A DNA stretch of 62,994 nt, the filler included, from Reclinomonas americana ATCC 50394 (lineage: Eukaryota): the NCBI GenBank assembly GCA_048213135.1. It is 12 parts of 12 records of this genome, joined end to end, with 100 filler letters (N's around TTAATTAATTAA, not from the genome) between each part and the next. Parts side by side here need not be neighbours in the genome. Positions count along the whole stretch, not along the records: positions 5,007 to 8,382 come from AFZH01022009.1; positions 8,483 to 10,467 come from AFZH01022010.1; positions 10,568 to 19,468 come from AFZH01022011.1; positions 19,569 to 24,109 come from AFZH01022012.1; positions 24,210 to 30,272 come from AFZH01022013.1; positions 30,373 to 35,988 come from AFZH01022014.1; positions 36,089 to 44,748 come from AFZH01022015.1; positions 44,849 to 53,861 come from AFZH01022016.1; 4 more parts are not named here. One strand, written 5' to 3'. Under the pieces are notes generated by a model, which was not told the DNA's origin, made no database searches, and saw only the letters and a program-made list of their open reading frames with translations. Positions 5,178-53,752 of the stretch are shown in pieces. How positions within the stretch are numbered: the stretch's first letter is position 1; each line of letters begins with the position of its first letter. The position numbers and the translations under genes were made by a program.

Positions 5178-7453
5178 ACCAAATCCTTCAGCATCTTCAT
5201 CAACAAGTACGATCGCGCCAACATGTACGACCGCTACTTCCTCGTGGACTCCACCGGCGAGTGGCGCAATCCACCGTTGCAGGTGGCCAAGCTGCCGCAG
5301 TTTTACATTTTCGATTCGGTAATCATGCCTGCCACTCATAATCGCCCCTGGTGCATTCACTGACTCTAACCATGGCACGGCGCCGCAGTTCCTCCAAGTG
5401 ATTCCATCGTATGCGGACTTGATGCATGGCATTCAGGGGCGCTGGGAGGCCGTGCAGTTTGTCAAGAACCCAGAGTTCAACTTTGCGGAGCTCGCCCTGC
5501 CCATTGTTGGTGGATATTATTCGCAAGTTTTGTGGGGGGGAGGGAGGGAGGGAGGGAGGGGCGAAGGCAGGGAGAGAAGAGGGAAAAGAGTGGCTGTAGA
5601 CACAGATACTAGATCCAGAGTTGCTGCTGGCGTCTTTTTGTCACTCGTGCACTGGCATGCGGCGTCATGTTGCACGTTCCATTGATAGAGCATGTTATAT
5701 TGGGACTTGAGTTGCAGCTTGCGTCTGTGTCGTCCTCCGTGCACAGACATGTACCGTCTTGCAAATTTCGTACGTGGTGGTGGGACTGCAGTTGCAGCTG
5801 GGATTGGTATAGTCGCCTTCGCACTTGCACGTGCCGCCTGTCTTGCACAGTTCATGACCCGGGTGTGCACCTGTTATCGCCTGGGTAGATGCTCCCCCCC
5901 ATCTCTCTCTCTGTCGGGGCAGGGAGGAGGAGACAAAAGACGCACTTGCAGATATATGATGTGATTGCAGTCAGCGAGTCAAAGACATTCCCCCTTACTT
6001 GCCTCTCTATCTCCTTTCCCCCCTGGATCAGGACCCCACCACCGGTGCCTTCTCCGTCGCTCGCGGCGTCATCATCCTCGCCATGTATCTGCGCCGCGCC
6101 GCCGATGTCCTGCGCACCCTGGCTCCGTTCTCGGACGCGGAGATCTTCATCTTTGAGGCATCGGGCCTGCTGGTTGCGCATCCAACGCTGCCAATCATCA
6201 CACCAGATGGACGGATCCACGCCTTGGACTCTAGCGATCTCGTGCGTATTTCCTATCAGGAGCTGGTCAAGGTGTGTATTGGATTTCGTTTGTACCTTGT
6301 TCACCGGTGAAGGCTCATCTTCCCGTCCTCGCAGCGATTCGGCGCCAACATGGCCAGCATCGAAGACACCGACATGGAGATTGAGGTCAACGGCAAGCGG
6401 TACCTGCTGTTGGTACGTTGGAGTGCGTGAGTGTGTGTTCTTTCCCCCCAGCGCACGCTGAATCACAGACACGCCACAGGCGAGTTTGCTTACGCAGGAA
6501 GACATGGCGAATTTCCACGGCGACTTCACGTGGATCTCAGTGGTGGCCGTTCCGCGTGCTAGCATTTACGCCGTGGTCGAGCGCAACTACTACATTACCA
6601 GCATCATTGCGGTGTGCATCTCGCTCGTCACTGTGGCCGCAACCGCCTTTGTCATGTATGGCTTTGTGCGACCCCTGGTGACCATCAGGTATGGAGCGAG
6701 CAGGCGCGTTGCTCATGTCTCTGCGCGTGCAACTCACGTCTCTCTCTCTATCTCTCTGTGCGCGCGTGCGTGTGTGCGTGTTGCAGTAATGACATGCTCA
6801 AGCTATCGGACTTCCAGTGGAGCTTCGAGTCGGACCACAATCGCTTGTCACGCTTCACGGAGATCGAGACGACAGAGAAGGCGCTCATTCGTGTCGTGAA
6901 GGCCATCAAGTCGTTTGCCAAGGCATGTGAATCGGACCCGTGTTGCTGGCTGTGGCAACGCTCGCTGAATCCCTGTCGCGCAGTTCGTGCCGGTGCCCGT
7001 CGTGCGTGATCTCATTCAGAGCGATGCCGTGGCCGAGCTTGGCGTGGAAGCGCGCGTGCTCACCGTCTTTTTCTGGTGAGCTGCGATGGCCTGCTTGGAG
7101 GAGCCTTTTACGCGTTCGAGTACTGACGCTGTAATGCGCAGCGATATTTCCAACTTCTCGTTTTTGGCCGACCGCTTGCCGGCCAACGATCTGTTGGCTG
7201 TGATCTCTGACTTTCTGCAAACCATGTCGTCTGTGATTGCTGCCAACGAGGGCACCGTCGACAAATACATTGGAGATGGCATTAGTTGCGGGGGCTGCGC
7301 CAGCCACGGTGACTGTGTGCAGAGATGTCTGACATTTTCCTCATGACTATTACAGTGGCGTTCTGGAACGCACCCAACCCTGTGCTTCAGCACGCCTGTC
7401 GAGCGTGCACGTCAGCACTTCAGGCATGTCGAGTGCTGGAGTCGTTGAATGCG
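5178..7453 (+). CDS. Membrane class III adenylate/guanylate cyclase (sensor region, TM, HAMP-like linker, cyclase domain); partial at both ends
   Basis: Spliced product reads KSFAKFVPVPVVRDLIQ...TVFFCDISNFS...GTVDKYIGDGIMAFWNAP, typical cyclase motifs. TM segment YITSIIAVCISLVTVAATAFVMYGFV. Confidence 0.88.
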
Positions 7454-7479
7454 GTGAGTGGCAGTGAACTGAGAAGCTT

Positions 7480-7531
7480 TCTTCTCTCTCTTTCGCTGCT
7501 CTCTCTCTCTCTCTCTTTCCGATCGCTGCTG

Positions 7532-7572
<41 letters not shown>

Positions 7573-7595
7573 CGTCCTCTCTCTCTCTGTCTCTC

Positions 7596-7628
<33 letters not shown>

Positions 7629-8382: not shown

Positions 8383-8514
8383 NNNNNNNNNNNNNNNNNN
8401 NNNNNNNNNNNNNNNNNNNNNNNNNNTTAATTAATTAANNNNNNNNNNNNNNNNNNNNNNNNNNNNNNNNNNNNNNNNNNNNTTGCGGAATGTCGCTCAC
8501 ACTCTCGCCCGCAG

Positions 8515-9496
8515 TTACGAGGCCGCCAAGGCCGCACTGGAGCTCACGCTGCGCAACCTGGAGATGGACTACGTGGATCTGTACCTTGTCCACTGGTGCG
8601 CCGCGCTGCATGTCGCTCATCACGTCTCTCGTCTGATAACTCATTTCTGTGGGGTGACTGCGCAGGCCTGGCGCTGCCGACTCGTCGCTGTTGCGTGCAC
8701 GATTCTCCTCCTCGCACACCGACTGCTGGTGCCGACGGAGCTCACCACGTGCATGCAGGTCACCCGCGGAGGTCGTGGCGCTTCGTGCCGGCACGTGGCG
8801 TGCACTGGAGGAGGCATTCGAGGCCGGCAAGGCGCGCTTTATTGGTGTCTCGAACTACACCGAGAGGCATCTGGAGGAGTTGCTGAAGGCGCCGGCGACC
8901 AAGGTGCGCCCGGTGGTCAACCAGATCGAGGTGCACCCGAAGTGCTCGTGCAGGTGTGTTTTTTTCCTCTGCTTCCGTTGCGCACACCACAGCGGAGCAG
9001 CACTCAGCGTGTGTCGATCGCATATACACATACGTAGTGCTCTGCGTGAGTACTGCCGCGACCACGGGATCACGGTGCAGGCGTACTCGCCGCTCGGCGT
9101 CGGACAGTTGCTGATGTTTGGTCTCACCGAGATCGACGACATTGCTACCCGACACAACAAGTCGGTGAGTAACGCAGCAGCATGTCTCTCTCTCTCTCTC
9201 TCTTTTCTTCCTCCAGCATCTCTAACAGTACAATGCACTGCAGCCGGCGCAAGTTCTCATTCGGTGGAGCGTCCAACACGGCAATGTGGTGCTGCCGCGC
9301 TCGTCGGATGCCGGTCGAGTTGCGTACACTGCGGCCATGACTCAGAAGAACCAGCCACGGTGGCGCCTAACCCGCTTCGCAGATCGCCTCCAACCTTGAC
9401 GTTTTCGATTTTGAGTTGTCGGCCGAGGAAATGGCCTCGCTCGATGCCCTCAACGAAGACATGCACCTGGTCGCCGACCCCGACGCCGAGCCATAA
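8515..9496 (+). CDS. Aldo-keto reductase family protein, 5'-partial
   Basis: Spliced: LEMDYVDLYLVHWPG...GKARFIGVSNY...PVVNQIEVHP...VQAYSPLG...PAQVLIRWSVQHGNVVLPRSS...IASNLDVFDFELS. TAA at 9494-9496. Confidence 0.93.
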
Positions 9497-9505
9497 TAAG
9501 AGGAT

Positions 9506-10429: not shown

Positions 10430-10467
<38 letters not shown>

Positions 10468-11989: not shown

Positions 11990-14489
11990 ATGGCGAGCAG
12001 TAGCACAGACACAACAGACAAGTGTGGTCCGGGCCCATGCGACAGCGATGAGGTGATGATTGTCAGTGGAGGCGAGGCCTCAGGATCTGGATCACAGGCG
12101 CCTGTGCGACCCATGATCAGCGTGGAAGTGCGCTACCGCAAGGATGTTGCGTCTCTCCCCCCTCTCTTCCTCTCCTCATGTTCTCTTTCTGTGGGGGCGA
12201 GTGTGCGATCTTTTTGGTGTTGTGTACAAGTGCGCGGGAAGAGAGTGATCATCATCATTGCCGACAACTGCTTCTGTAGGTGTTCACACTCCACTGCCCC
12301 GCGGACTCGGATGTGTTCTTCCTCAAGAATCTGATCGAGGAGGTGTGTGTGCTGCGGTTGCTTGCTGATGCCAGGCAGAGTGATGTTGACGACCAGTTGT
12401 TTGTACACAGCTCACTGATGTGCCGCCTGAAGGGTTTGAGCTGTCTCTCTTCATCTGCTGTGCGCTTTACATGTTGTCTCACAAGTGCGTTTGTGCGTGG
12501 GCGCAGTCAAAAGCTCATTGGCCTCACCAAGGGCGCGCCACCAGCGGATTCGGTGCGCAAAACTTTAGCTGTTGTATTTGGTCGCTTCTCACCGCCACTG
12601 ACGGGAATCGCTCTGTCTGTGCAGGTGGCACTCACCGATCTGTATGCTCCGCCGCGCCTGCGAGTGATGCTCGTTGCGATGCACTCTTTCCTCCTTTCCT
12701 CGTGCCCCTTTGGTATTCACTCGGAAATCATCGTTTTTGCAGATTGGTGATCCCGTCAAGAGGGTGATTTTGGCGCCCGACGAGGTGGAGGGTGTGCCGA
12801 TCTTGCTGGATGACTTTGACATGGATCAAGTGATGTCGGGTTTGTGATGTTTGTGCCTGTGGTGGCGAGCATCGTTGCACCTGCTAACTGCAAGCATAGA
12901 GGAGGAGATCCGATCCAGAGGCGAGATCGAGCGCAGCCTGCAGGAGCGTGTGCGCAAGGTACGCCCAGAGAGAGGCAAAGAGAAGGAGTTTATTGTCACG
13001 GTGTGGTGACATTGCAAGCAGCTCGAGATCCACTTCATCACGCCACCGCGACCCGGACGAAAACTCCTGGTCCTCGACATTGGTTTGTTGTGTGACCGGT
13101 TTTACATCCCTCCCGTCGATATTGCATTCACTCTTTGTCTTCCACTCCCGCAGACTACACCATCTTTGACTGCAAGAGCACTGTGGAGATTGCATGTTGC
13201 GTTCGCCACGAGCACTGCCTTGTGAATGGCTGTGGTGTATTGATGTGTGTGAGTCGACGCAGTGTGCAAACGACCAGGCACCGATGAGCTCCTGTCGGCC
13301 GTGTACCCGTACTTTGACATTTGCTTCTGTTGCGAGAATGCACGGCAGCCCGGGAAGAGTGTGGCGTGGAATTCACCGCGCATGCATGCACAGGGAGTCA
13401 AACCAAGTGGACGTGGATCGAGGCCAAGCTCACGGAAATGGGACTGCTGACACCGGGCATGCCGTTCCGCGTTGGCTGGAGTTGCGTGCTGCGCCGCTTT
13501 CGCTGACAGTACCGAGTCCCATCTCTGACACACCGTTGTGTCCCCAGTTCTGGACCGCACCATGATGTTCCCGGTGACATGGGTCGACAAGCACGGCGAG
13601 GAGAAGCGACATGAGGTGTGCTTGCTCACTCACTCCTTTCGCGTGCTCCATCACAGTCTCATTAATGCCTGTTGCTCTCGTGCGCACAGGTCAAGCCACT
13701 GGAGGTATACTCGTCAAAGATTGATGACTTTGTGCTCTGGTGTACACTGACATGTAGCGTGCAGCTCATTTGGCGCAAACTCGGTCACTTGTACAGCAAG
13801 TTGCGGCAGGCGCAGCACGACATGCAGCACAGGGGGAGATTTGAGGGGCAGCGATGCATTCCTCACACTCCCTCGTGCAACAGAATTGGAGGGATCTCTT
13901 TTTCAGTCTCTCTCTTTCTCTCTCTCTCTGTTGCATCGCCCTCAGCGTCACTCCCGTTGCACTCGTATCACTGCTTCTCACTCCTCGTACATCGCCCCCA
14001 ACTTCCTCCAGTTTGTTTCACACAACTCCTGTTGCTCTTGCATCACTGCTTCTCTGCATCGCGCTTCGACTTCCACCTTACAGGTTCACATCGCATTCCT
14101 TTCCTCTCCTCCCTGGCATGTTCTTCGTTTCCTCAGCACTTCCCTCACCCTTCCTGCACTTTAGTTTGATTCGCACTCCCGCCACAACCCCTTCTCACAC
14201 ACACCGCAACAGAGAGAATACCGTGCACGTCGACGATCTGGCACGCAACTTTGTGCTCAACCCTGCCAACGGAGTTGCGTATTCTCCCTCTGCCACATCG
14301 TCACCCCTTCCCCCGCTCACTCCCCGGACACAGATCCGAGTCCAGTCGTACAAGGAGGCAGAGACACGGTACGCTGACGACCGCGAGCTCGTGCTGCTGA
14401 CCAAGTACCTCGTGCAACGCGTGGCCCCACTGGCCGACGTCACCAGTGTCAGCCACAAGAACTGGCGCTCTGTAGCCGAGGAACTGTGA
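11990..14489 (+). CDS. UBLCP1: Ubiquitin-like domain-containing CTD phosphatase
   Basis: 16 exons. UBL part LTDVPPEGQKLIGL; HAD motif RPGRKLLVLDIDYTIFD; also ICFWSQTKW, VKPLELIWRK and ENTVHVDDLARNFVLNPANG. Confidence 0.9.
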
Positions 14490-14635: not shown

Positions 14636-15509
14636 TTAGCCGTACAGCGCCTCACTGAGACCACGTATCCGGCGGGCGAGTTGAATGTCCTTGGGCTGAA
14701 TGGTGACACGCTTGGCGTGAATGGCACACAGATTTCTGCATTGTCGGAAAAACTCAGTCGCTGTGTGTTGTCGCAAGTTGATTGACGACAAGCCAAGAAA
14801 AAAACGCAACGAGTCCTCAAAGAGTCCCACCAAGTACGCCTCCGACGCCTCCTGCAACGCCTCCAACGCTCTCGCCTGGAAGCGGTAGTCCACGTGCGGT
14901 TGCACCGTTGCGGCAATCTCGCGAACGAGCCGCGCAAACGGCAGTCGTCTCATCAGCAACTCTGAGCTCTTTTGGTACTTGCGAATCTCACGCAGCGCCT
15001 TGGTGCCCGGTCGGTACCGCCGTCGCTTGCGCGATCCATCACCGCCAGCAGTACCAGCAGACACCGATGAGGCGCCACCAGGAGACATCAGACCGGCTGC
15101 GCAAAGAGAGAGAGAGAGAGTGAGTGACATCGCCATCTCGCACACACACTTTCGCTTTCGTGCACACGTACGCCTGCTCTCTCCTTTTCTCTCTCTCTCT
15201 CACTTTCTCCATCTCTTACTCAACGCCTGCTCGTCGAGCGTAGTGCACATCGGCAAGGAGACGGAAAGGCCAACGTGTCGCAGCATGTCACACACACGCA
15301 CTCACTTTCACACACACTCTCTTACACATCGACGTACCTCGCTCCAAGTGCTTCGACGACTTGCCCTTCTTCTTGTTCTTCTTGGAGGAGGCCGCAGAGA
15401 GGGCGGCCGACGAGGATGCAAGTGCCTTCTTCGGAACTTTGTCGCCCTTGTGTGCAGCCGACGACGCCGACGAGCCACCAACACGCTGACGACCACCGCT
15501 TGGAGGCAT
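14636..15509 (-). CDS. CENPA: Centromeric histone H3 variant (CenH3/CENP-A-like)
   Basis: Histone fold [18 protein letters not shown]...[11 protein letters not shown]...[28 protein letters not shown]. Long non-H3 tail, loop 1 two residues longer than H3, H3 Q68 replaced by A. Introns 15097-15337 and 14736-14810. Confidence 0.82.
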
Positions 15510-15789: not shown

Positions 15790-16414
15790 ATGGCTCTCCC
15801 GCGAGGACGATTCGTGTCTGTGCTGTGCGCAGTGGCATGCGCTGCGCTGTTGATGCTCGGTTCGTGTTTTCCGCGTGTGTGAGAAGTGAGAAAGAGTGCG
15901 AAAAAAAGAGTGTGTGACATGTGCGGAATACAGTGGTTTCGTCGCCGGCGCCGGCGCACTCGATTCAGCTGATCAACACGAGCACCATGGGTGTGGCGTT
16001 TTACCAGGCCGGATCCATGAATCCGACACCGCCACTGCTGGCATCGTCGGCCAAGGCGCTGCTCATGCTGGCGCCCTACAATGCCGCCTACCTGCTGGAG
16101 TCCTGTTGCGTAGTGTGTGTGCGCGACTCACGGGAGAGAGAGCGTGCATCTCATGCGCATGTTGTGTGTGCAGTGAACATCACGTCGCAGGCGCAAAAGA
16201 TTTCGTCGACGGACCTCCCGGATCTCATCAATCTCGACACGGGCAAGTGGCCGGCGCTGTTTGATCTGTGCGCACCTGACGAGTCGCTGGTGTGCGTCAC
16301 CTCGTCGAATGCGACGGGCATCTACTTGCGCCAGTTCTCTGTGGCCACGCTGCACGACGTTCGCAGGCCGCTGTTTCTCGATGGACAGCCCATCACTGGC
16401 GGTACGCCAAACCG

Positions 16415-16448: not shown

Positions 16449-19400
16449 CCGCCTCGCCCCCTCTTCTCATTCTCCTCGCAGTGCTAAACACCGTCAATCA
16501 GCATCTGCTGATCGTGGCCTCCAAGGGACCGACTGACCTGGTGCTGTACGATGTGGACCCGGCAACGTGGACGCTGGTGAAGACCTCGCCACTCGAGGCC
16601 AACGATGACCCACAGGTGGCTGGATTCAATCCACACACGTCTGACCTGCTGCTCGGCTCCTCCAAGGCCTCTGTCGGCATTGTGCGATACGCCACCGCCG
16701 GCGCCGCCGTCAAGCGTCTCGGCAATCTGGCGCTGCCGTCGGCATTGGTGTCGCCAATCATTGTCGACAGTGAGCATGACATGGGATACGCCGGCACCGG
16801 CGTCGGCACTCTGCTAAAGGTGAATCTCACGGCTGTGCCGCCGCCCCCGCCACCCAACAACACCTTGTCGGAGATGCTGCTCCTGGGCGACGACTACGCG
16901 GACTGGTATTCTGCGCCGGCCCCTCACTACTGGCAGTTGGATCTGCCGGGATACATTAGCGTCGGCGGCATCGACTTTACCAACGCACAGGGCTACTTCT
17001 CCGAGGCCGCCAAGTCGCCGATGTACATTGTCGACATGGTGACGTTCCAGAAGGTGAAAAACATCGACACGGAAAGTTACGTCCATCCACCCTCTCTCCC
17101 CTCTCTCTCCGTCCCTCCCTTCATCACACTCACTCTCTCGTGTCGCCGACAGTCACTGGCATTGTTGTTGGCCCCGCCGCCACGGCGATCACCGCACTGC
17201 ACCAACCACGCTTTATTGACACGTGGGAATTGTCGGCGGCTGATGTTGCGTGTGTCCCCCCCATCTGTTTCTTGTTGTGAGGGATTGAGACTGAGTTTGA
17301 TTCCGACTGCACCCAGCCGGTATCGAGCGTGACCTTTACGTCGACCACCAGCACCACTGCCGTGTTGTCGTGGACTGACCCCATTTACAACGGCGGACTG
17401 GCCATTACCGAATATCAAGTGGAGGTGTGTGTGTGTGTGTGTGTGTGAGCGTGCGTGTGCACAGTGATGGGATTCCTTGAACACTGACCGCGAATGAGTG
17501 CAGGTTTCGACCAAGAACACATTCCCGGTGAACACGACGCACGTTCCCGGCTCCGCTGCCAACCAGCTGTCGCTCACGAATCTGTTGGCGGGCACCAAGT
17601 ACTACGCCCGTGTGGCTCCAGTCAATGCCATGGGTCGTTCCGACTGGCTCACCCAGACGGGCGCCACCATTCGTGAGTCACTTACTTGTTGCCATTCCTT
17701 CTTTATTTCTGCTTGCGCGCTCTCATCGAGGTCAATACGTAGCGAGCACACCAACGACGCTCACTACGCCCACGATTGCCGACATTTCGGTGTCACTGTC
17801 ATGGACGCTGCCGGTCGACGGCAATGCGTTCCTCACGAACCACCTCGTGCAGTACTCTACATCGGCGACATTCACGAGCCCAGTGTCGATCCTCACCAAC
17901 TCCACTCTGCCGTCGTTCACCGTCACCAAGCTCACACTGGGAGTCAAGGTGCGTGTGTAGACTGCGTCTGACTGTGTATCCTCTTTGTCTCACACTCTGT
18001 TATGCAGTATTACTTCCAAGTGGCATCGATGAATGCCGGTGGTCGTAGTGCTTACTCCGGGAGCGTCAGTGCCACGACCAAGAGTGCGTACTCGACCGTC
18101 CTCAATGTCGCCCACTCATTTATTCGTTTCCTACTCACTCACTCACACTGTTGTTTCGTTTCGCAGCCGTCGTACCGGATCCACCGAAAAAGCCTGGTGC
18201 CACCAAGGTTCAGGGACACGCTCTGACGCTGACCTGGGATCCAGCACACGATGGTGGCACGTCCATCACACAGTACGCCGTGCAAGTATCGCAGTCGTTT
18301 GGTTTCTCCGACAACCTGCAGTTTGAGTCGACCATGTTTCGTGCCTCGTGCCGACTGTTTTTTTTTTATTATTATTTCCTCGTGTAGTACTTCCATTTTG
18401 ATCTCACCACGCAATGCGCAGTCCGATGCTGAACGTGACTGGTCTGTACGGCGGTACGCAGTACTATTTCCGAGTTGCCGCACGCAATGCTGTCGGACTG
18501 GGTCCGTATAGCTCGGCCTTGGGACCCGTGACGACACTTCGTTGCGTGTGGGGGGTCGTTCGTGAACCTGCCGCCGCCGTGTATTGACGGTCTGCTGTGC
18601 AGCCACTGAGCCGTCGGCGCCGTACAAGCCCTCGGTGTCACAGATCACGAGCATGGTCGACAGCCAAGTGCAATTTGTGTGGAACAAGGGCAACTCGACG
18701 GGCGGCTCGCCAATCTCGCAGTTGCGTCGTCGTTCACCTCGGGCTTCACTTGGCTTCGTCTTTCACTAACAGAAACACTTGCGTGCAGCTATCGCATCTC
18801 CTACCGCCGGAGGCCAGTGGTGGGCCAGGACGGGCAGGAGACCACGGGTTACGTGGACTCGACGACTCCCGACACTCAGCTGCTGGTGAGCGTGGAGGAT
18901 CTCGGTGGTGGAGCGTCGTTCTGGATATCCTCTGCCGTGTCGGCCGTCAACACACTCGGATCGAGTCCGCTGAGCCCCTACAGTGGCGAGGTCGAAGTCT
19001 TCACGGACGTGTCGCCGCCTGGCTCGCTCAACATTGGCCTCATCATTGGAGGTGTGACGCGCTCTCTGGACCTGCGCAGATACAGTACCCCTGCTCATCC
19101 GTATGTCGTGTGTGTACGCGCAGTGGTGGTTGGCGGTGTCGCGTTTGCGGCCATTGTGACGATTGTGATTGTGTATGTGGTTCGGCGCCGTCGCCGTGCA
19201 TTGGGCACCGAGCCCGACGAGCCGCAGCCGAAGCGCCAGCGCCGTGGACGAGTTTCGTGAAGTCGTCCGCCTCACTGCTCACACTCACAAAGTACACATC
19301 GGTGGCTAACATTGTGGCCCCCTTCCCCTGCAGGTCCGCCTCCTCGACGACACCGACGACGGAGTTGGCGACGGCTACGGCACCGCTGCGCCCTCCGCTC

Positions 19401-35135: not shown

Positions 35136-35988
35136 CTATCTAAGAGAGCCAGCACTGAGGGGCGGCATTCCGCGCCCTGAGCTGACTGGTGAGAGGTGCT
35201 GTTGGCCCTCCATCGTGTTGACCGGCACGTACTTGCTCGAGTGAAGCAAGTGCGGTCGCATATCCCACGAGAGAGCATCGCCGCCGTGCGGCGAGCGCAG
35301 GTTGCTGTGAATGGCCACGAGACCTGTCGATAGATAATCAGCAACACGACACGTGCTCTGCAGTTCACGGAGAGCACCCACCAAACGCCTCGTCTCCAGC
35401 AGCCGTGCACACAGCATGTGTAATGTACTGACAGCGGCAGCAGCAATACATGGTCCAGCTGCGAGAGAATGGTCAGGCGATGGTGGTGGATGCAAGAGTA
35501 ATCTCTCCTGGGCCTCATATACACACCTCGGCGACGCAGGTGCACGATGCGGCCACTCCTCCACACAGGTGGCCTGTTCGAGGCACCCAAACATGTTGTC
35601 CGGTGTCGAGTACGTCCAAGTGGTGGTCGGTTCACTCCACAGCAGCACCGAGTTCATGCGCTGAATGTAGTACGGATCAAAGGCGGGCACGGTGATGGTG
35701 GCCGCCACCGACGTCTCGCGCGGCGGCGAGTCCGCCACCCACTGGTCCTCGCCCAGCACACTGTTCGAGGCACTCCAGCACTGCCCGCACAAACACCGAT
35801 ATAACGAGGTGGCGGTGCTGCCGGCGAGACTGGCCGGGGCCGTGGCTTGCCTGCACGCACACACATATACAAAAGATAGTGGCTTCAGCATTTCCGTCAC
35901 ACGACTCTCCCACACACACACACACACTCTTCGACGCAACAGCGGTGGAATTGGCGGCAGCGTGCGGCTCACGAGCTCCAGGAGACGT
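35136..35988 (-). CDS. 3' end of a gene, possibly the C-terminus of the large kinase on the next contig (5'-partial)
   Basis: Long ORF with Cys motif YRCLCGQCW and in-frame intron 35851-35940. Same strand as the adjacent truncated kinase. Confidence 0.5.
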
Positions 35989-41779: not shown

Positions 41780-44748
41780 ACAGACCTGCGACCGCAGCTG
41801 CTCCCGAATCGGCCGCAGCACATCCTCGTGTCCCGCGTTGATCGTCACCGATCGCATGTGTCCCGAAAACGACAACAGCACTCCCACATGCAAGTGGGCC
41901 AGGTGCAAGCAAATTTCGCGTGCGGACGGCTCGTCACCACGACCGCGACCTGACAACAAAACGCATGACACCGTGATAAGCTCTCCAGCAACAACCGACG
42001 CCTCAAAAAGTTAACGCACGTTCTGTGTCGGTAGCGCGGGAGACGCCAGGCGTGGCCAGCGACAGGCACTGCACCATTTGCAGGTAGTGCAGCGACAGGT
42101 AGTGACTGACATACATCTCCATGCTCAAGAACGGACAAATGGCCACCGGCAGTGCAAAGAGATCGGCCACCAAATTGAGACCCTGTGACAACAAGCGGTG
42201 AGTCGGTGTGCGTGTGCGTGTGTGTATGTAAGCAACCGAGCCGCACCTCGCACTGCATGGAAACCCAGGCCTTTGCCGCCGAGATACGCGGATCCACACC
42301 CGCAGGCAACGCATCGGCATCGCTGCCGAGAGTGTCATCGTCCATGCTGTCTGCCGAATGACGATCGAGACTCTCAGCATCCTCATCGATGCCGTTGGCA
42401 GATCGGCGACCGGCTGCCGCTCGCGGTCGATTGACGCCGACAATGGTGGGAACCAGGTCGCGAGAGATCAGCACATTCAGCGCGCCCTCGACCGGATGCA
42501 CCAGGAAGTCCAACTTTAGCACGTACTCCGACACAGCAGCAGCCACCCGCGCGCGACGATTCTCATCCAGTGGCCGTCCGTCAAAGCTCCGACACGCCAT
42601 GCGGTAGTTGGTGGACATGACCGACACAATCATCTGCGCCCAGCGTTGGTCAGACGACAGTGTGATGGATAGATGCACCTGAGCAAACAATAGACACCCG
42701 CACCCGATAAAAGTCCAGGATGCGAATGACGTGGTCACGCAGAGCAAAATCGAGATCGGTCGACCGCTGCCACACACGTTCACCCCACACAGCAAGCAGC
42801 GCACGTCGCATAACCTGGGCCAAGGTTGTTGCCGCCACTGCTGCATTCGGGTCCAGCTCGGCCTCAAAGCCGCGTCCGTGCGGCGCAGCCGACGCACCCA
42901 CGGTGGTGGGAGCGACCGCCGGCGGCACATCACCGGCATCGAGTGAGTCATCGTCGTGCATGTCTGCATCACACGGTCAGATGCACTCAGACAAACGCGC
43001 ACACACGCACACACTGCATAATCGAGGGCGAACCAGGCTCCGAGTCATCGTCTTCTTCGAGAATCAGTGCCTTCGCCACATCCAGGGAAACCATGACGTA
43101 CGTGGACAGCCAGTTCACTGGACGTGCTGTCGCTGCCATCGATCGACCAGTAGCCGGACTGTTGGATCGTGAGTGTGAGAATGAAACGCCCGTCACGCAA
43201 GTGCGCAGAAAAAAACGAAACTTTGCCGCATTCCAACTCGCTCCGCCCGGCGCCGTCGTGAACGTGTTCCCCGAAGCCGTCAACATGTCGCACATCACAT
43301 CAATGACCACCGGATGGCCGGAGCACACCGCGTAGCTGCAGAGAGAACTCATTGTCTCGAGAAGGAAGTGCATGGCCTGCACGTGGCACCAGTCTGGTCG
43401 AGAGACTCGCACAAGACATTCTTGCACGCGCACCAGGAGGCGCAAGAAGAGGTGCACGGTCTGCGAGCAGACCGTGCGCGAGTTTGACAGTGCCGTGTGC
43501 AGGTACGATGAGAGCACCTCCAAATGTCTGGTCACTTCGGTCCACGCGCCCACCTACAACGAGACAAGCCGTGCGGTGAGTGCCCATGTCAGAGTGTGTG
43601 CGTGCGCACCACGCAAACAAACCGACGGCTGTGCCTCCAGTGTGGCCAACACGGCTTTCAGCGAGCCGGCAAGCCGCCACAGGAAACGATTGGAGGAGGA
43701 CGATGATGACACGAAGATCTCGGTCGGCGGTGCTATTAGAATATCACGCAAGATTGAGTTGACGTTGGAGTGTATCGCCACGCAAAAAAAGCATCAGCGA
43801 CGCAACACAAGGCGGCAAGATTGAGCTGGTACATGTTGCGATAGACAGGTTGCGGCGCCGACATGGAGAGCGGATTGACACCGAGTGAGTTTTGTCGCGC
43901 CACAGTGCGTGGTCGCTGACTCAACGCGAGACCTATTCGTGCACCGGTGTCAGCCAGAATTGCCTCGACACAGAGCGGCGGGCGAGCTGACGCAACTGGT
44001 CGGAGTCGGCGCCTGGTCGGAAGGACTGGAGGGCGATTCGCGACCGCTGACAGGGCCAACAGAAACACCCGAGAGCGACAGTGCGGCGCTGTTCGGTGGT
44101 CGGTAGGTGGAGGCTGACGAGCGCGGCTTCCGTGAACTTGACTGCGGCCCATCCGGCATCCGCGCCGAGTACACCCCACGTGCCGAGGAGTCTTCTGGGC
44201 TCATGAACAACGCGCTGCCACCGCCACCACCTCCTGCACCAGCGCCAATGACACCAAAGCCCCCATCTGGTGATGATGACGGCCTCGTGAGCACGCTGAC
44301 CATGCGCTCTGGTGCCGTTGACGGAAGGGCCAACATCGATCGCGGTTCAGCAGCCGGCGCCGTGAAATGCAGAAGAATGCGATGAGCGAATTGACGTGCC
44401 CTCTGTGCCCAGGCGTTAGCAACGGTGAAAAACGACAACTGCAGAGCAGCGAGAAATGCACCAGCGAGAGTAGGCCAGCAATGTTTTGCGCCTGCATGTC
44501 TCGCTCGCGCACAGTCGGGATCAACATCGGGTGGTTCCAGTTGTACTCAAAGTCCGGGCGCAGCTTCCGCAGGAAATAATCGTGGAACGAGAAGTCGTGA
44601 GCGGGGTGGTGACCGAGACTCATGTGTCGCAGACGACGGACTGCGTGCGAGTGCACCATAAGCGACGCGAAAAAATCAGCCACTCAACACGAGTGCACAC
44701 CACGCACCTTGCTTCTGGAACACGACGTGTGGCGCGAGAGCGGCGTGT
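36089..44748 (-). CDS. Very large multi-exon Ser/Thr protein kinase (kinase domain ~36150-37350), partial at both ends
   Basis: VAAGAFGSVY, LVVKVMD, IIHFDLKCDNIML, VLADFGES, RGTECIKSPEM and SDVWSLGCLLYEI. Upstream exons can be chained in frame through most of the contig. Confidence 0.85.
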
Positions 44749-46027: not shown

Positions 46028-49000
46028 ATGAGTGCGCGCCATGGTGACGACGAGGACAAGGCGAGCGTGGAGTCGCTGTTGCGGCGATTGCAGGTGGTGA
46101 TGTTGCGGTGTCCGGTGGATGCACGGACGGGGCAGTTTGAGCGCGCTCGCGATGCCTCGCTGCATGCGTTTCTGTTGCGCGTCTTGTCGGCGCGCTTGGC
46201 TGTCGCCTCCTCCTCCTCCTCTTCGTCGTCGTCGAGTGGCGGTGGACGCGTGCAACGCACAGGTGTGTGTGCATGTCTGTGTGTGTGTGTGTGCGTGCGT
46301 GTAGCGATCTCACGTGTGTGTGAGCAGACGAGGCTGGATCCACTGACGCGTATGTGATGGGCGAGATCATCAAGAAGAGGCGTTGCGTTCGCCTTTGCTC
46401 ACGTGCTGGGCGGCTGGTTGTGCTGACGGATTCGCTTCCACACGTGCAGTGGCACAACAGGGACGACCGGCGGCCGCGGTGGAGTTCTCAGATGCATTTC
46501 GGCGACTGGTGGCGCTGCCGATTCTCAAGCGCAAAGGACCGCTGCTGCATGTGCTGTCCACGGTGGCGCGGTACAATGCGGCCGTGCAGCATGGCGTTGA
46601 GGTGTGCAAGTGGAGAGTGCGTCTGTGCCCTTGCTGTGTTTTTCTTTGCTGACAATGCCGACAGCCGGCACACACGGCGTTTGCGGATCTGCTGTTGAAG
46701 GACGTGCCGTCTGCTGCAGCTGGCTCCGGCAAGTTGTCGTCAGCGGACAAGACAGTGGCGGTGGCACCGGGCACGCGAGGCGATGGCGTTGCATTACCGC
46801 CGTCGTCGTCGTCGTCGTCGTCGCCACCCGACGATTTTCTGCAGGGCTTTTCCGATTCTGAGTCACCCGAGCACGGTGAGTCTCGTGGTGCGACGAGGCG
46901 AGGGGTCATCGTGGCACTCACCTCTTGTTGCACAACACAACACAGAGTCGGTGCGCGTATCCGAGTTGGTGCTGCTGCGCGACATGATGTTTGTGCTGCA
47001 AGGCATCGACGGGCGGCGGATTCGTTTCGACAGCGGAACGAATGCGTATGAAGTCGATAGCGCCGTGTCCGTGCCGCCCACTTTCCACGCCATGATTCGT
47101 CGCATTGGCGAGCTGGGCTGGCTCTACCGAAGGATTTCGACATTTACGCATGCCGTCAGTGCCTCGGCGACCACGACCGGACTCGTGGCGCAGAGCTTCT
47201 GCTCGACGGTGCAGCAAGAATTGGCCGCCTACTACCGCAGCATTGCCATTTTGGAGACGCAGATGAACTTTGAGGGTTGCGTCTCCAGTGTGCCGATGCA
47301 GCGTGCGAGTTGCGTGTGCGAAAACTGATCTTCTTCTGCCTCTCTCTCTCTCTCTCTCAGCCGCCAAGGTGCGGTCGGGCGAGCAACCTGTACACTATCT
47401 GTCATTGCGAAAGTTGGTGGTGTGGATGGAGGAGCCGCTGCAGAGGCTGAAACTGATTGCCGTGTTGGTCGATGCGTGTGCGGAGCTGCATGGCGGCGAG
47501 CTGGCATCACGAGTCTACGAGTTCCACAAGCACGGCGATCCATTTGTACAGAGCTTTGTCGACAAGATCCTCCATCAGGTGTGTGGCGACTGGGGAAAAA
47601 AAGAGTGGCGAGTGCCCTGCAACTCATTTCCGTGCGTCAAGGTGTGCGTTCCGATTTTGAACATGATCCACCGATGGGTGTTCGAGGGCACGCTGGAGGA
47701 TCCGTTTGACGAGTTCTTTGTGGCCTCCAACCCCAACGTAACACCCAATCGACTGTGGCACGACAAGTACTCTCTGCGCGAAAAGATGCGACCTTCGTTC
47801 ATTTCCGAGGCACTGGCACAAAAGGTGGCGTGACTCGCGGGACTCTGCTTCGTGGTGTCTCTCCCACACTCACTTCCAACATGTGTTTGCCTGCCAGATC
47901 TTGTCCACGGGCAAGTCCATTAACTTTATTCGCCACTGCATGCGCGACTCGGAGTGGCTGATGGACTCGGGCGCCTCCACCACGGCACAGCAGGGTGCGA
48001 AGACTGCCACCACTATCGATGTCTTGTTGCCAATTGAGCGCGCTCATTTGTGTTGATCAGCGCTGGCGGCTGGCGACTGGACTGTGCTGGAGGGAGTGAC
48101 TGATCAGGCTGCCGATATCACCAACCGGCACCTCATCACCACGATCTTCTCAAAGTACAAGATCGGCGCCCACATTCTCGCCCTCAAGCAGTACATGCTG
48201 TTGGGCCAGGGCGACTTTATCCAGTACCTGATGGACATTGTCGGGTGAGAACGTGGGAAGAGGGCGAAAGGGAGATTTCGCGAGCTCACATCGGCACCGC
48301 CTCGCAGACCCGAGCTGAACAAACCGGCGAGCGCCGTGGAGCGACACAACTTGCCGGGCCTGCTCGAGTCAGCAATCCGAGGCTCCAATGCACAATTCGA
48401 GGACGAGAATGTGCTCGACCGGCTGGATGTGCGGCTGCTGCAGGTCAGTCCTCGGTTGTTTCGTCGCACCTGCGATCGCACACTCACCAAGTTGCGCAGG
48501 AATCCCCGGGCGACGACGGCTGGGCCGTGTTTTCGTTGGACTACAAGGTTGACGCTCCGATCGACACCATTCTGACCACAGAGACGATGAACACGTATCT
48601 GCGCATCTTCAAGTACCTGTGGCGCTTCAAGCGCGCCGAACACTCGCTCAGTTCCATCTGGAGCCGGCACATGTCGCTGGCGCACATGCTGGTGCTGCCG
48701 CGTGACGCCGACCTTGCAGCGCTCCTGCATCGTTGCCGTCTGTTGTGCCATGAAATGGCCCACTTCACCTCCAATCTCGGCTACTTTGTCATGTTTGAGG
48801 TGTGGCGTGTGCGCACTCGACACACTCTCGCCGACGCCACGTATCTCACTGCTGCTGTTTGCTGCGCAGGTGTTGGAATGCTCGTGGGAGGAACTGCAAC
48901 GCTCCATGCGATCGGCACCGGATTTGGACGCCTTGCTAAAAGCGCACAACCAGTACTTGGATAGCATTGTGGAGCGCTCGCTGCTGGGCGACGACAAGGA

Positions 49001-49430
49001 TGTGGAGGCGTTGCGGACGTTGATTACCCGGATTTTGGACCTGATCCTCCAGTTCAGATACGCCCAGGAACGCGCGTACATGGACCTGGATGCGGAACTG
49101 AGTCGCCGATCGGGCTCCGCCGGTCAGGAGAGCGGCAGTCGGTGGGGCAGCACCAAGACACTGGCAGAGGAACAGGCGGAGCAGGCGCAGTCGGTAAAAC
49201 TTGTGCGCTCGATTGCACAGAACGCGCGCCTGACACGCGAAGCCTACTCGGATCTGCTGCACAATCTGATGGATCTCTTGTCACGCGTCAGCTCCCACGA
49301 CGACATGCTCAAGTACTTGTCCTTCCGTTGCGTAGTCTGTCCGTCGTTGTTAACAAGCGCGACGTGTCTCACCTGACGTGTTTGAGCAGGTCTCGACTTC
49401 AACGAGTATTACGACAACGGAGGCTCGTAG
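46028..49430 (+). CDS. TUBGCP3: Gamma-tubulin complex component 3 (Spc98/GCP3)
   Basis: LLRDMMFVLQGIDG, GELGWLY, GLVAQSFC, HGDPFV, LEDPFDEFFV, ALKQYMLLGQGDFIQYLMD, GWAVFSLDYKVDAPI, FEVLECSW and LSFRLDFNEYY. Confidence 0.95.
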
Positions 49431-49521: not shown

Positions 49522-50698
49522 TTACGACATGTAGTTGAGGGGATCGAGTCTGTGTTGGTGGGATGGTGAGGGAGGCACACACGCGTGTCGACACACACAC
49601 ACACACATCGACAGACCTGTACATGTTGCCGTACTGCAATGTTGGAGTCTGGCCGCTCTCGCACTCGACCACGGTGACAGCCATGGCTGTGGCAAAGCAG
49701 ACGTGAGCCAAGCACACACACACACGTTGCGCTCGTCGTTTCACGCAACTATCCTCATCCTGAATGTGGTACGTCACCGTCACCACACTGGTGCGCAGGA
49801 AAAAGTTGAGGACCGCCGTCTGCGACGGCTGGTGGAAACGACCGGAGCACGCCACGCCATTGTAGCTCCACAGCAACTGCGTGTCGCCGCCCTTGCCAAT
49901 CGTCACCTTCATCTCGTAGCCAATCGTTGTGTTGTGCAGACCCTTGCCAAAAGACCAGTACCTACAAGAGGAAACGTGTCAGCCCGACGAGACACGGAAA
50001 AGAAAACACCAAAGGCGGGTCGGCACGCAACAGGTACCGCGTGGTCGGCGATGTGTCCATCTTGCGCACTTCCTCAATCTGCGCCACCGAGATGGTCAGC
50101 AGTGAGAAGCGCAAAGGAGAAGGAGAAGGAGAAGCACAAGGCGCAACTGTCACAATGGAGTTGGTGGATCGCAAATGCTGCCACGTCCCACCTGATCGCA
50201 ACAACGATTAATGATGATCACGGCAAATGCACAGTAGTGTGATCACTCTCTCTCACCAATCTCGCGGAACTCCAAGTTGCGCTTCCACGGACCAAGCAGG
50301 AACGAGGGAAAGTCGGTGCCACTGCCATACACACGCACACAAGTGAGCATATGTGTGTGTGCCTGTATATGTGTGTGACTGTGTGTGGATTACCTCGAGG
50401 GCGGGAGTGAGGAGGCCGCAGGTGCAGCAGCCGACGAGCCTCCCGCACCTCCTGCTGCAGCAGTCGCCGAGGCACCTGCGCCCGTAGTGGTGGTGGTTGT
50501 TGTTGTGGATGTCGCAGTCGCAGTGGACGACGCATCGGCGGCGGTCTTGCCCTCGGAGAGTGATCGCGAGTGGGGCGCCACTGTGGAGGAGGCCGAGGGT
50601 GGTGCAGAGCCGGAGGCGGCCAGAAGCCGAGCAGAGCTGTTGAAGCGACTGTTGCTGCCACCGGGGGCGCGGGAGGAACCAGGGAACGCGGGGTCCAT
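49522..50698 (-). CDS. Hypothetical protein: low-complexity N-terminus plus ~150-aa beta-rich domain
   Basis: Seven exons chain in frame: FPSFLLGPWKRNLEFREIGGTWQHLRSTNSIVTIEE...YWSFGKG...TAVLNFFLRTSVVTVTYHIQDEDTMAVTVVE...QYGNMYRLDP. Confidence 0.7.
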
Positions 50699-50772
50699 GT
50701 GTGTGCTCTCTCTCTAAACGCAATCGCTGGTGTGTATGTGACACACGCAGGACACTAGTGCACTGAGGAAGA

Positions 50773-52372
50773 ATGGACGGGTCTGTGAGTCTGCAGGCAC
50801 TGGCGTTGACCAGTATCTCTGGCATGGCCACTGGCATCGGTGTGTGTGTGTGTGTGTGTGCGTGTGAGCGAGTGTTGTCTCCTCTCTTCGTTGCTCATCT
50901 GTGATATGTCGGCGGCCAAGGATCGTGTGCGGTGTTGGTGTTTGGTGAGGATGCGCATGGAGTGACCAGTGGACGCATGTTGGCCTTGGCGGCGGGTGTG
51001 ATGCTGCAGGTGAGGCACACATAGTCGGCGTGTCATTCTCTGTATCTCTGCCACTGATGGAGACATGGGGACAGGTGTCGGCCTTTGATCTGCTTCCCGA
51101 GGCTGCCGAGGTCTGCTCTTCTCCTCTCGCCTGCTCACCTCTTGTGCTGTTGTAGCTCACTGCACCTGTCAGGTCATTGGCTGGGCGGAGACGCTGGCTG
51201 GCGTTGCGTTCATTCTGCACTGTGCACATGCACGGACAAGTGTTTGACTTTCCCCCCTGCGCACAGTTCGTTGTCGGCTGTCTGTTGTACTTTGTGCTGG
51301 AGCGACTGGTGCCGGAGCCGGACTTGAAGGCGTTTGGAGCGCAGCTGTTGCCGACGCCGTCGGCCAGTGGCGCTGCGGTGTCGGCGTCGATGACGGAACG
51401 AGTTTTGTCTCGTCTTCTCCTCTCTCTGAAGCTGCTGCGTGCTGATATCGCCTTGTCGACAGCGCCGTCTGCTGCGCACGGGTTTTATTGTGGCGCTCGT
51501 GCTGGCGGTTCACAACTTTCGTTGCGTGGTTGTTCGTGGCACTGTGTTGTGAGATGCCGACGACTGAGAAGGGTTGCGTGCGCAGCCGAGGGAATCGCCG
51601 TGTACATTAGTTGTCTCAAAGGTTTGTGCCGACCGACCCGCCTGACCGTGCGTCGCGCTGCGTGCACTAACCGTGGTGTACGTGTGAACAGGAATGCGCT
51701 TCGGCCTGACCATCATGGTTCGTGTGCTTTTCCTCGCCGGCACCCCTTTTTTTCTCAACCAACGCGTCTGTGCTGCAGATTTCCATCATGCTACACAACA
51801 TTCCAGGCGTGTTGCTCGCTGCGTTCCTCTTCTTTTCGAGATCGATTCTCATTGCGTGGTGTTGCAGAGGGCGTGGCTGTGGCCTGCAGTATCTACGCCG
51901 GCAGTGGCAAGTTACGCGTGCACTGATCCTCTTCAGCGCCACGCCAATTCTCACTGCCGTTGCAGCAAGAAGCAGGCCATGTTCTGGTCGATCCTCACTG
52001 GCGTAGCGGAGCCGGTGGGAGCGCTTCTATTTGCCCTGGTCTTCCAGTTCTTCATCTCGGAGCACATGGTGTCCTTTGTGCTCGCCGTGGGTACGAGCTC
52101 TCGCGCCGCCATGTGTCACTTGCGCGGAGCGCGTCACTCACTCCTCGCACAGTCGCCGGACTCATGTTCACCATCAGCCTCGCCGAGTTGATCCCCACCG
52201 CCAGTCGCTTCATCGGCACCACGGTGAGTTTGGTGATGATTTTTTCACTCGCTCTAAAACGAAACCTGACAATCCTTGCACTCGCCGACAGCCGCTGATT
52301 GGATTCACCATTATCGGCATGGCTCTCGTGTTCGCCTGCTCCCTCTTCTTCGATCTCATGGAGATCCATTGA
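50773..52372 (+). CDS. ZIP family (ZupT/GufA-type) zinc/iron transporter
   Basis: SGMATGIG, LAAGVML, LAVHNFPEG, IMLHNIPEGVAVA, LTGVAEPVGA and VAGLMFTISLAELIP. Confidence 0.92.
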
Positions 52373-52553
52373 GAAGATAGTTTCATTGTAGTAGAAAGCA
52401 TTGAAAGAGACAAAGACGGTACGGCTAATTCGATTGACATCGACGCACAAACACACACTCGCAACCGTGATGGCGAGAGCAGTGTAGATGAGAGGAAGAG
52501 CAGAGAGTAGGGGAAATGGAGAACGCCACGGACACAACTGGTGCTCCGCCCGA

Positions 52554-53752
52554 CTACACCTTGTCGACGCTGCCGCCGACGGCTGCGCCACCCCTCGGAG
52601 ACTTGCGACTCGTCGCCTTTTGCATCGGTGACCTTGACGAGGAACCGGTGCCGCCTGCCGACGACAGAGTGACGGTGGAGCCAGCAGACGTCTTGTTGGC
52701 GGCGTTGCTCGATTTGGGATCGTCGAGCAGCATGTCGTCGTCGGCCGGCAACAGAATCAGCGAGTGCAGAGCCAACACTGCGGCGAGCACGTGTAAGTGC
52801 CAGCTACAACGGAGACGAGCTCTCCGTGGCCTCCCCACTCACCGCCTGCCATGATAATGACGACAGAGAACACAGTGCCGGCCAGCGAACTAAAGAAGAA
52901 GAACAGGGTCGACACTGCACATGTGCCATCGTCAGTCGACGCTCCAGAACGAAGAATACTTGCTTGCACGAAAAACGCACCTGTGCCGAGCAGCATAAAC
53001 AGGCGCTCACGTGGCAACCTGACATGCCCGATGATCAGCGGGCGGAGTCGGTAGGTGTTGTACACGTAGTACCAGGCGCCGCCGAGAATGCCCAGCGGAA
53101 TCAACAAGACCGGGTCGAGGAGACTGTCGTGCAACAGCACTGTGAGAGAATGACACCATGCCAACACGAGGGCGGTGACACTACGCAACAGCGCAAACGC
53201 CACCGCTCCCGCCGTGATCAGCAGGTAGTTGAGAGCAAAGTACAACGAATTGCGTTTCAAGCGCGTCCACGCATCCCTGACGCTCACGGGGCGACTGTAC
53301 CCACACACTCGTAAGTTTCAGGGGCAGACAACAACACACACAGCACAGCACAGCACAACACAGCACCTCAACCGCGCCACGGCAATCATCGCCGGCCACG
53401 GCCGCATGCGCAGCGATCGCACGAATCCACTCACGTACTCCAGCGCGTTGCGGAAAGCATTCGCCTCCTGCCAGACGCGTGGCACATCAATGTCTCCTCC
53501 CCCTCCTCGCTCAGAGCATCACGCTGCAACACGTACCTCTGGCACCGACAGCTCTGTCTCGCCGTCTTTCCGCGCCTCCTCCTCCTCCTCATCGTCGACA
53601 GCAGCTCCACCAGCAGCACCGGCTGCTGTTGCTGCTGAGGAAGGATCATTGGTCGCCAGTGGCTTGTTGTTGCCGCTGCCTGGCGCACCTCCGCCATACG
53701 CACTGTTGCCTCCACTCAACAGGAGAGACGACTGCGCATCTTGATCGCCACC
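52554..53752 (-). CDS. PRA1 (prenylated Rab acceptor) family protein, 5'-partial
   Basis: MRPW, SRPVSVRDAWTRLKRNSLYFALNYL, hydrophobic hairpins, VLALHS. Confidence 0.8.

Follow-up and report, generated by a model that had tools for sequence, protein, structure and literature searches.

The window analysed in this report, by which is meant the whole stretch of 62,994 bases from Reclinomonas americana ATCC 50394, consists of 12 contigs of 2.0-9.0 kb joined by linkers of 100 bases (44 N, TTAATTAATTAA, 44 N). The linkers lie at 2142-2241, 4907-5006, 8383-8482 and eight further places, so that gene order across them is not real. Contigs 1-10 (1-53861) are eukaryotic, have a G+C content of 55-60 % and are dense in short introns, and the subject here is the class of those introns that begins, at the 5' splice site (donor), with GTTGCG, most often GTTGCGT. 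A preliminary description of this DNA, made by splicing genes by hand, had listed 42 such introns as roughly a quarter of those that it could model. All 42 coordinates (24 on the plus strand and 18 on the minus strand) indeed carry GTTGCG, 35 of them as GTTGCGT, and within the scope of this sample, one window and about 150 modelled introns, the donor class is real.

Six GTTGCG introns are fixed exactly by homology. Homologues were retrieved by single-exon queries and aligned with a protein-to-genome aligner that penalizes every GT...AG or GC...AG intron equally and hence has no donor preference; the 'blind finder' in the entries below is the donor-blind gene finder described after them.

14736-14810, minus strand: GTTGCGT intron of 75 nucleotides (nt) in a histone H3-like gene; the last complete codon upstream of the donor matches position 97 of the Pfam Histone profile and the match picks up again at 99 beyond the acceptor, which leaves 98 for the codon that the intron splits.
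25322-25403, minus strand: GTTGCGC intron of 82 nt in a SIRT6/7-like sirtuin gene; 20/20 alignments; the gene finders wrongly took a GT 9 nt downstream.
25106-25182, minus strand: GTTGCGT intron of 77 nt in the sirtuin gene; 20/20 alignments and blind finder.
9319-9382, plus strand: GTTGCGT intron of 64 nt in an aldo-keto reductase gene; 33/36 homologue alignments and blind finder.
49327-49389, plus strand: GTTGCGT intron of 63 nt, the last in the GCP3 gene; 3/3 homologue alignments and blind finder.
47276-47360, plus strand: GTTGCGT intron of 85 nt in the GCP3 gene; 2/3 homologue alignments.

Excision restores a conserved reading frame in all six, as is expected of U2-type GT-AG introns. The same alignments also place other donors: each of the 20 full-length sirtuin homologues that take 25403 to 25322 and 25182 to 25106 likewise takes a GTGAGT donor at 25551, and the GCP3 alignments verify a GTGGCGT donor at 47825. 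Among the protein motifs by which the preliminary description had pinned its introns, those for the sirtuin (25403), GCP3 (49327) and the histone (14810) stand, and those for the cyclase, ZIP and UBLCP1 genes were not reproduced, since Pfam searches with single exons gave no matches for the cyclase, the ZIP or most UBLCP1 exons; the donors in question are nevertheless in the blind-finder set. A search of PDB with a 28-residue UBLCP1 exon returned nothing useful. The histone had been called a CenH3, a name that finds no backing here: the core encoded by the gene at 14636-15509 (minus strand) is of the ordinary H3-like kind (125 bits to Pfam Histone), its C-terminal exon reads like canonical H3, and nothing seen in it marks a centromeric variant. 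As a separate observation on GCP3, two GTTGCGT copies, at 47276 and 47309 (plus strand), lie 33 nt apart and in frame at the start of one intron, and may be alternative donors that add or remove 11 codons.

The blind finder, a dynamic-programming method, learns codon usage, acceptor profile and intron length from the window, its sole donor rule being that a donor is GT or, with a penalty, GC. On convergence the set comprised 147 introns (median length, 69 nt), and GTTGCG was the commonest donor hexamer (25 of the 147, 22 of them GTTGCGT), followed by GTGTGT (9), GTGAGT (6) and GTGCGT (6). Against a background of 86 GTTGCG among 7130 GT hexamers (1.2 %), this enrichment has a binomial p of 3e-21. 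Every GTTGCG donor that the finder used was one of the 42 already listed, of which it recovered 25, and 28 of the 42 are backed by at least one donor-blind method, whether the finder or homology. A second finder, given no prior knowledge of donors but allowed to learn a donor model as well, ranked GTTGCGT first as well (29 of 285 introns), although it over-predicts. Both were benchmarked on 19 homology-verified introns drawn from the sirtuin, aldo-keto reductase, GCP3, H3 and PRA1 genes and from TCTP, whose three introns, all with ordinary donors, are backed by a protein derived from expressed sequence tags (ESTs). The blind finder was exact for 12 of the 19 and the trained finder for 15, and most misses were a neighbouring GT at the same intron, so that intron number is about right and boundaries not always. 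Six of these 19 introns start with GTTGCG, which, together with the 25 of 147, bears out the earlier estimate of about a quarter. One trained-finder intron, 25219-25290 on the minus strand (GTGTGGCG), was rejected, being read through by the best sirtuin alignment and placed by 0 of 20 homologues; it cautions that exons of this genome are split too readily by self-trained models. A gene finder that used codon usage without signals gave noise.

GTTGCG occurs 99 times in the window against 63.9 +/- 8.4 expected, a total reached by 0 of 100 shuffles, and GTTGCGT occurs 43 times against 14.0 expected under a first-order Markov model. The 42 copies of GTTGCGT in the eukaryotic part comprise the 35 listed donors, one extra probable donor at 29095 (minus strand) in a G-patch gene, three copies inside introns (47309, 51573 and, on the minus strand, 36508), one exonic copy (37123, minus strand) and two antisense copies. 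Within gene spans, the strand of which was assigned from coding potential and Pfam, GTTGCGT is found 37 times in sense and twice in antisense, the strongest strand bias among non-repeat heptamers. When the next base is A, C or G instead of T, GTTGCG lacks a clear strand bias (22 copies in sense, 7 of these listed, vs 16 in antisense), although the GTTGCGC at 25403 is fixed by 20/20 sirtuin alignments nonetheless; T stands at +7 in 33 of 38 GTTGCG introns.

It is in light of these results that an artefact of hand splicing, with the true donors at nearby ordinary GT sites or with the segments retained, seems very improbable. The introns are known here from genomic sequence alone, the finders chose adjacent GT or GC sites at 25403, 47276, 50147, 53189 and 35940, and the introns at 14810, 40428, 50147, 53189 and 29095 are in frame without stops. 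However, donor-naive homologue alignments take GTTGCG in 20/20, 20/20, 33/36, 3/3 and 2/3 cases, the H3 profile is exactly continuous across 14810, and the 37:2 strand bias is without other explanation. For the six pinned introns, comparison at the sequence level largely refutes the artefact.

The remaining introns are candidates placed from coding statistics and the strand bias. Nine of the listed donors are plausible by local scoring only, with 33080 and 34016 adding suggestive 7tm_3 exon starts, and a tenth, 53189, has approximate PRA1 support. Thus the list of 42 holds in the main, with donor-blind support for 28; five of its entries (13800, 32438, 32586, 35940 and 36111) are weak, and 8690 is unconfirmed by 36 homologues.

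46382-46449, plus strand: GTTGCGT intron of 68 nt in the N-terminal region of GCP3; 1/3 alignments, the region being poorly conserved; blind finder.
53124-53189, minus strand: GTTGCGT intron of 66 nt, in frame, in a PRA1-family gene; Pfam PRA1 position 55 on both sides, to within about one codon; best local score; blind finder instead at a GC 5 nt downstream.
7285-7355, plus strand: GTTGCGG intron of 71 nt in a cyclase-like gene; blind finder; motif pin not reproduced by Pfam.
8690-8758, plus strand: GTTGCGT intron after an 8-codon mini-exon in the aldo-keto reductase gene; blind finder; not confirmed by the 36 homologues, 21 of which skip the mini-exon, which would restore HWP.
12146-12279, plus strand: GTTGCGT intron in a UBLCP1-like gene; blind finder; acceptor at 12201 (donor-trained run) or 12279.
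12673-12742, plus strand: GTTGCGA intron in the UBLCP1-like gene; blind finder.
13196-13262, plus strand: GTTGCGT intron in the UBLCP1-like gene; blind finder.
13329-13393, plus strand: GTTGCGA intron in the UBLCP1-like gene; blind finder.
13481-13547, plus strand: GTTGCGT intron in the UBLCP1-like gene; blind finder.
14274-14333, plus strand: GTTGCGT intron in the UBLCP1-like gene; blind finder.
16105-16173, plus strand: GTTGCGT intron in a gene for a fibronectin-III (fn3) membrane protein; blind finder.
17245-17316, plus strand: GTTGCGT intron in the fn3 gene; acceptor at 17316 (donor-trained run) or 17295 (blind run).
18541-18602, plus strand: GTTGCGT intron in the fn3 gene; blind finder.
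18721-18788, plus strand: GTTGCGT intron in the fn3 gene; blind finder.
51203-51266, plus strand: GTTGCGT intron in a ZIP/ZupT-like transporter gene; blind finder.
51521-51585, plus strand: GTTGCGT intron that splits HNF/PEG in the ZIP-like gene; blind finder; the spliced reading is HNFPEG, which we take to be a family motif, followed by a second, HNIPEG.
19619-19693, minus strand: GTTGCGT intron in an inositol-polyphosphate-kinase-like gene; blind finder.
20018-20089, minus strand: GTTGCGT intron in the inositol-polyphosphate-kinase-like gene; blind finder.
38886-38969, minus strand: GTTGCGT intron in a large kinase-containing gene; blind finder.
40124-40193, minus strand: GTTGCGT intron in a large gene; blind finder.
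41076-41130, minus strand: GTTGCGT intron in a large gene; blind finder.
49687-49749, minus strand: GTTGCGT intron in the gene at 49522-50698; blind finder.
49962-50031, minus strand: GTTGCGT intron in the gene at 49522-50698; blind finder.
50079-50147, minus strand: candidate GTTGCGC intron of 69 nt, in frame; strong acceptor and good flanks.
39940-40022, minus strand: GTTGCGT intron in a large gene; plausible by local score only.
40366-40428, minus strand: GTTGCGT intron of 63 nt, in frame; plausible by local score only.
43733-43806, minus strand: GTTGCGT intron; plausible by local score only; stop on read-through.
43933-43996, minus strand: GTTGCGT intron; plausible by local score only.
29907-30022, plus strand: GTTGCGT intron of 116 nt in an ankyrin-repeat gene; plausible by local score only.
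33080-33153, plus strand: GTTGCGT intron in a gene like those for family-3 G-protein-coupled receptors (GPCRs); strong acceptor; the next exon opens a 7tm_3 match at profile position 10.
34016-34084, plus strand: GTTGCGT intron in the family-3 GPCR-like gene; the exon from 34085 aligns to 7tm_3, starting with its first residue at profile position 174; local score weak.
29042-29095, minus strand: GTTGCGT intron of 54 nt, in frame, in the G-patch gene, absent from the earlier list; CGCTGAC, a T run and CAG follow; the donor-trained run has one GTTGCG intron in this gene.
13800-13805, plus strand: weak claimed donor; poor downstream coding score with every acceptor tried.
32438-32443, plus strand: weak claimed donor; poor flanking coding score or no clear acceptor.
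32586-32591, plus strand: weak claimed donor, GTTGCGC; poor flanking coding score or no clear acceptor.
35935-35940, minus strand: weak claimed donor; acceptor not clear.
36106-36111, minus strand: weak claimed donor; the intron enters a contig linker and masked N.

When 38 GTTGCG introns were compared with 93 others from the blind set, the two groups proved alike in nearly all features. The acceptor is YGCAG in both, which is the consensus across the eukaryotic contigs (with G or A at -4); 30/38 of the class and 76/93 of the others have a branch-like YTNAY motif, in most cases CTCAC or CTGAC, at 8-45 nt (mostly 11-27 nt) before the 3' end; median lengths are 69 and 67 nt; and base make-up is the same. 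An all-against-all blastn comparison of 38 + 97 intron bodies gave low-complexity or same-locus matches only, 14 of them weak ones between class members. The preliminary description was therefore right that the bodies are unrelated after base 7 and that they end in ordinary branch-point and AG signals; a distinct branch motif for the class can be dismissed. Apart from the donor itself, the sole difference lies in the last exon bases. G at -1 is found in 3/38 class introns vs 71/93 others (Fisher p = 1.7e-13), which is even under its 29 % background (p = 0.003), and A at -2 in 8/38 vs 41/93. The -1 position of the class reads A13 C10 G3 T12, and the -2 position of ordinary donors A41 C17 G17 T18.

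These comparisons bear on the idea of a historical relic, in which some element or process that always leaves GTTGCGT at the 5' end once created many introns in a burst, the heptamer having merely been maintained ever since. Introner bursts have taken place in other protists. Furthermore, Reclinomonas is intron-dense and the jakobid Andalucia godoyi is intron-poor, with introns in 12 % of 864 examined genes (PMC7050145), so that intron content has changed greatly within the group, through large gains or losses. Nonetheless, the bodies have no similarity beyond base 7, there is no terminal complement (pairing of the heptamer with the 3' part of the intron was considered and rejected, CGCAAC occurring in 1/38 introns), length and 3' signals equal those of other introns, and a relic would leave both the depletion of G at -1 and the retention of the motif unexplained if it is not read as such. 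We give this idea only a slim chance.

The heptamer behaves in an all-or-none manner. Under one uniform test for plausible donors, sense copies of GTTGCGT passed in 18/37 cases vs 0/8 for GTTGAGT, 0/8 for GTTGCAT, 0/8 for GTCGCGT and 0/7 for GTTGTGT. A wider GT-N-GCGT class was rejected, as GTGGCGT gave 1/16 plausible donors despite the verified example at 47825. Other GTT donors are few, namely GTTACGT at 17076, GTTACGC at 51911 and GTTTCGT at 43221 (minus strand), each of which follows an A and has CG at +5/+6. Among ordinary donors, GTGAGT and GTGTGT are as common as GTGCGT, and position +4 reads C26 T24 A18 G3 (of 71).

The reading that we favour, and to which we would assign about even chances, is that the GTTGCG introns are genuine short (about 55-85 nt) U2-type GT-AG introns of nuclear genes with a second, discrete donor type that would be read one base off register. 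That the U2-type machinery is the same for both classes is suggested by their identical 3' signals; the pairing register we infer from donor statistics. Ordinary donors may be written G/GTGNGT, and G/GTGCGT and /GTTGCGT would then differ at one place. Intron G+1 of GTTGCGT would take the place on U1 that normally faces exon G-1, the obligatory U+2 would form a mismatch where G+1 normally pairs, and UGCGU would occupy +2 to +6, with cleavage still falling before the only GU. A one-base shift predicts both that G should be lost at -1 and that the make-up of -1 should resemble that of ordinary -2, and A is indeed commonest at both (13/38 at -1 of the class). With a central mismatch, all other positions might have to be optimal, and an energy threshold of this kind could yield a near-invariant heptamer; it would imply that G at +3 and C at +4 are the preferred partners of this U1. 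The preference for C, then T, at +4 would fit a U1 G opposite +4 (C by Watson-Crick pairing, U by wobble) better than the standard base, although that the U1 of this organism pairs best with GC at +3/+4 is speculative.

The preliminary description had allowed for a shifted or a bulged register, and only the former part agrees with the exon side of the donors. In a bulged register, G+1 and U+2 would pair normally, one U (+2 or +3) would bulge and GCGU would pair as +3 to +6. Such a view is invited by the heptamer being GTGCGT plus one T, and bulges at +3 (or +2) are established for some human donors (PMC4856993). However, the exon base at -1 would face the same U1 base as before and G should stay favoured, and the counts of 3/38 vs 71/93 disfavour the bulge accordingly and make it distinctly unlikely.

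Several points weigh against the one-base shift, at least in its simple form. The match between -1 of the class and -2 of ordinary donors is only slightly above background by a hand calculation, and the ordinary introns in that comparison come from the gene finder that was exact on 12/19 verified introns. A simple shift should also have produced GTTGAGT and GTTGTGT donors, in a plain mirror of the ordinary spectrum, and none was plausible (0/8 and 0/7). With +4 at C26 T24 A18 G3, C is not clearly optimal there. EST-derived protein support reaches the ordinary introns of TCTP and no GTTGCG intron. Finally, an Rfam search of the window, at gathering thresholds and at E <= 1, yielded no small nuclear RNA (snRNA) gene, but only a bacterial transfer RNA (tRNA) and weak microRNA-like noise.

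GTGAGT and GTGTGT are common while their shifted forms, GTTGAGT and GTTGTGT, are unused, so that a one-base shift on a standard U1 would not suffice, and the fact that GCG is strictly required may point to a co-evolved or an additional snRNA. A dedicated means of recognition, be it a second U1-like snRNA, an altered U1 or U6, or a sequence-specific protein, that fully matches GUUGCGU would go further still. The near absence of one-mismatch variants is how a short perfect duplex behaves, a standard U1 does not account for the need for C at +5, and changed U1 5' ends matching atypical donors are described for Entamoeba and Mastigamoeba (10.1101/2022.06.08.495308). On the other hand, a U1 that pairs from +1 to +7 and has the usual next bases should favour G at -1, where G is depleted, and the 3' signals are identical in both classes; we consider full matching unlikely, if far from negligible. 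It may tentatively be suggested, as a possibility still on the doubtful side, that the major spliceosome of this organism understands two donor 'dialects', ordinary G/GTGNGT and invariant GUUGCGU, the latter of which would be read by a co-evolved U1 (with G/C opposite +4/+3) that lets only the perfect shifted site pass, or by a second U1 paralogue complementary to it.

The rest of the window holds some further features. The last two contigs (53962-62994) are bacterial, with uninterrupted genes (TetR, PagL, an MFS transporter, NUDIX, PRA-PH and polysaccharide deacetylase) and one tRNA at 61340-61413; a protein of Bradyrhizobium is 88 % identical to the MFS protein, those of sphingomonads and Brevundimonas are about 80 % identical to it, and these contigs probably come from bacteria that lived in the culture as food or as companions. 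Contigs 4 and 5 overlap, the end of the former matching the start of the latter at 93 % over 136 nt; contigs 1 (1-2141) and 2 (2242-4906) have in common two stretches of about 700 and 820 nt at 78-83 % identity, in paralogous genes; and contig 6 contains, at 22050-24109, tandem or dispersed repeats of about 540 nt with 87-92 % identity. Runs of (GT)n and (CT)n on the eukaryotic contigs are mostly intronic and strongly sense-biased (GTGTGTG 183 vs 29, TCTCTCT 145 vs 38). The last exon (26483-26728) of the TCTP gene at 26480-27200 (minus strand) has 91 % identity to a Reclinomonas americana EST-derived protein in EukProt, and P0008, a second EST-derived form, matches the gene at 172 of the 178 residues in a spliced alignment (about 97 %), which assigns the eukaryotic contigs to R. 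americana or a jakobid very close to it; the two Reclinomonas forms reflect paralogy, allelic variation or a difference between strains. A 40-mer taken from the window had 0 exact matches in genome-contig and metagenome-contig collections, and a GCP3 exon search of metagenome contigs gave one weak locus only (L001), which was not used.

Recognition of the donor by U1 is among the most conserved RNA-RNA contacts in eukaryotes, and, to our knowledge, off-register U1 pairing is known only as a human rarity. Here a deep-branching free-living protist, the genes of which are very rich in introns, appears to use an off-register heptamer for roughly every fourth or fifth intron, which would make it a natural system for studying the limits of U1/U6 register sliding, the co-evolution of snRNAs and donors in intron-rich genomes, and intron turnover within the jakobids. 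There is a practical side as well, in that gene prediction in this lineage fails on a large share of introns unless the donor is modelled, our own finders having misplaced several. The preliminary description knew of no organism with such a leading donor, and literature text searches on the heptamer as a splice site and on Reclinomonas or jakobid introns, splice sites and snRNAs, which extended neither to supplements nor to Archibald et al. 2002, likewise turned up none. As far as those searches reach, there is no description of an intron-dense genome in which one shifted heptamer supplies roughly a fifth to a quarter of the donors. Priority may be qualified, because Archibald et al. 2002, cited in PMC1501061 for the high intron density of jakobid CCT genes, may list some intron boundaries of Reclinomonas CCT genes.

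Placed beside known systems, the class resembles several and coincides with none. Introners, as in Micromonas, Aureococcus and others, likewise have a stereotyped end; however, their copies are similar along their length, and an introner-like mobile family was rejected here for want of any similarity between bodies beyond the splice signals. U12-type introns also have a long near-invariant 5' motif, lack an exon-end consensus and form a discrete class beside ordinary introns, but GTTGCGT is unrelated to their donor consensus, and membership is excluded by branch and acceptor signals that are those of ordinary introns, where U12-type introns have a branch motif of their own close to the 3' end. 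A closer likeness is found among atypical human donors, at which Roca and Krainer reportedly described shifted and bulged U1 registers. At rare human donors both registers are proven (Tan et al. 2016, PMC4856993), and there, as would be the case here, the donor fits U1 when displaced by one base or with one U bulged, cleavage stays at GU and the major spliceosome is at work; the human donors, however, are rare and heterogeneous, whereas here there is a single heptamer, at roughly a fifth to a quarter of donors, with a GCG core that is not preferred by standard U1. The GTGCGY donors of the Mamiellales (Ostreococcus, Micromonas) have a similar GC-rich GCG core after GT, but they are read in the normal register, by a standard U1 in genomes poor in introns (10.1101/2022.06.08.495308), and none has the extra T. 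In Entamoeba, with its GTTTGTT donor, and in Mastigamoeba, changed U1 5' ends reportedly match the atypical donors (Roy and Bowser, 10.1101/2022.06.08.495308), a U1 with G opposite +4 being reported for Mastigamoeba, whereas Thecamonas and Mamiellales prefer C at +4 with a standard U1. As in those two lineages, the Reclinomonas donor is atypical (U at +3 or C at +4 in theirs) and possibly matched by a changed U1, the ordinary donors here favouring C and T over A and G at +4. Unlike in them, where the whole intron population has shifted to one consensus (and Entamoeba is intron-poor), two discrete donor types coexist here, and, if the two-dialect reading is true, Reclinomonas would provide the first case of an intron-rich eukaryote whose U2-type system contains a split code for the 5' splice site.

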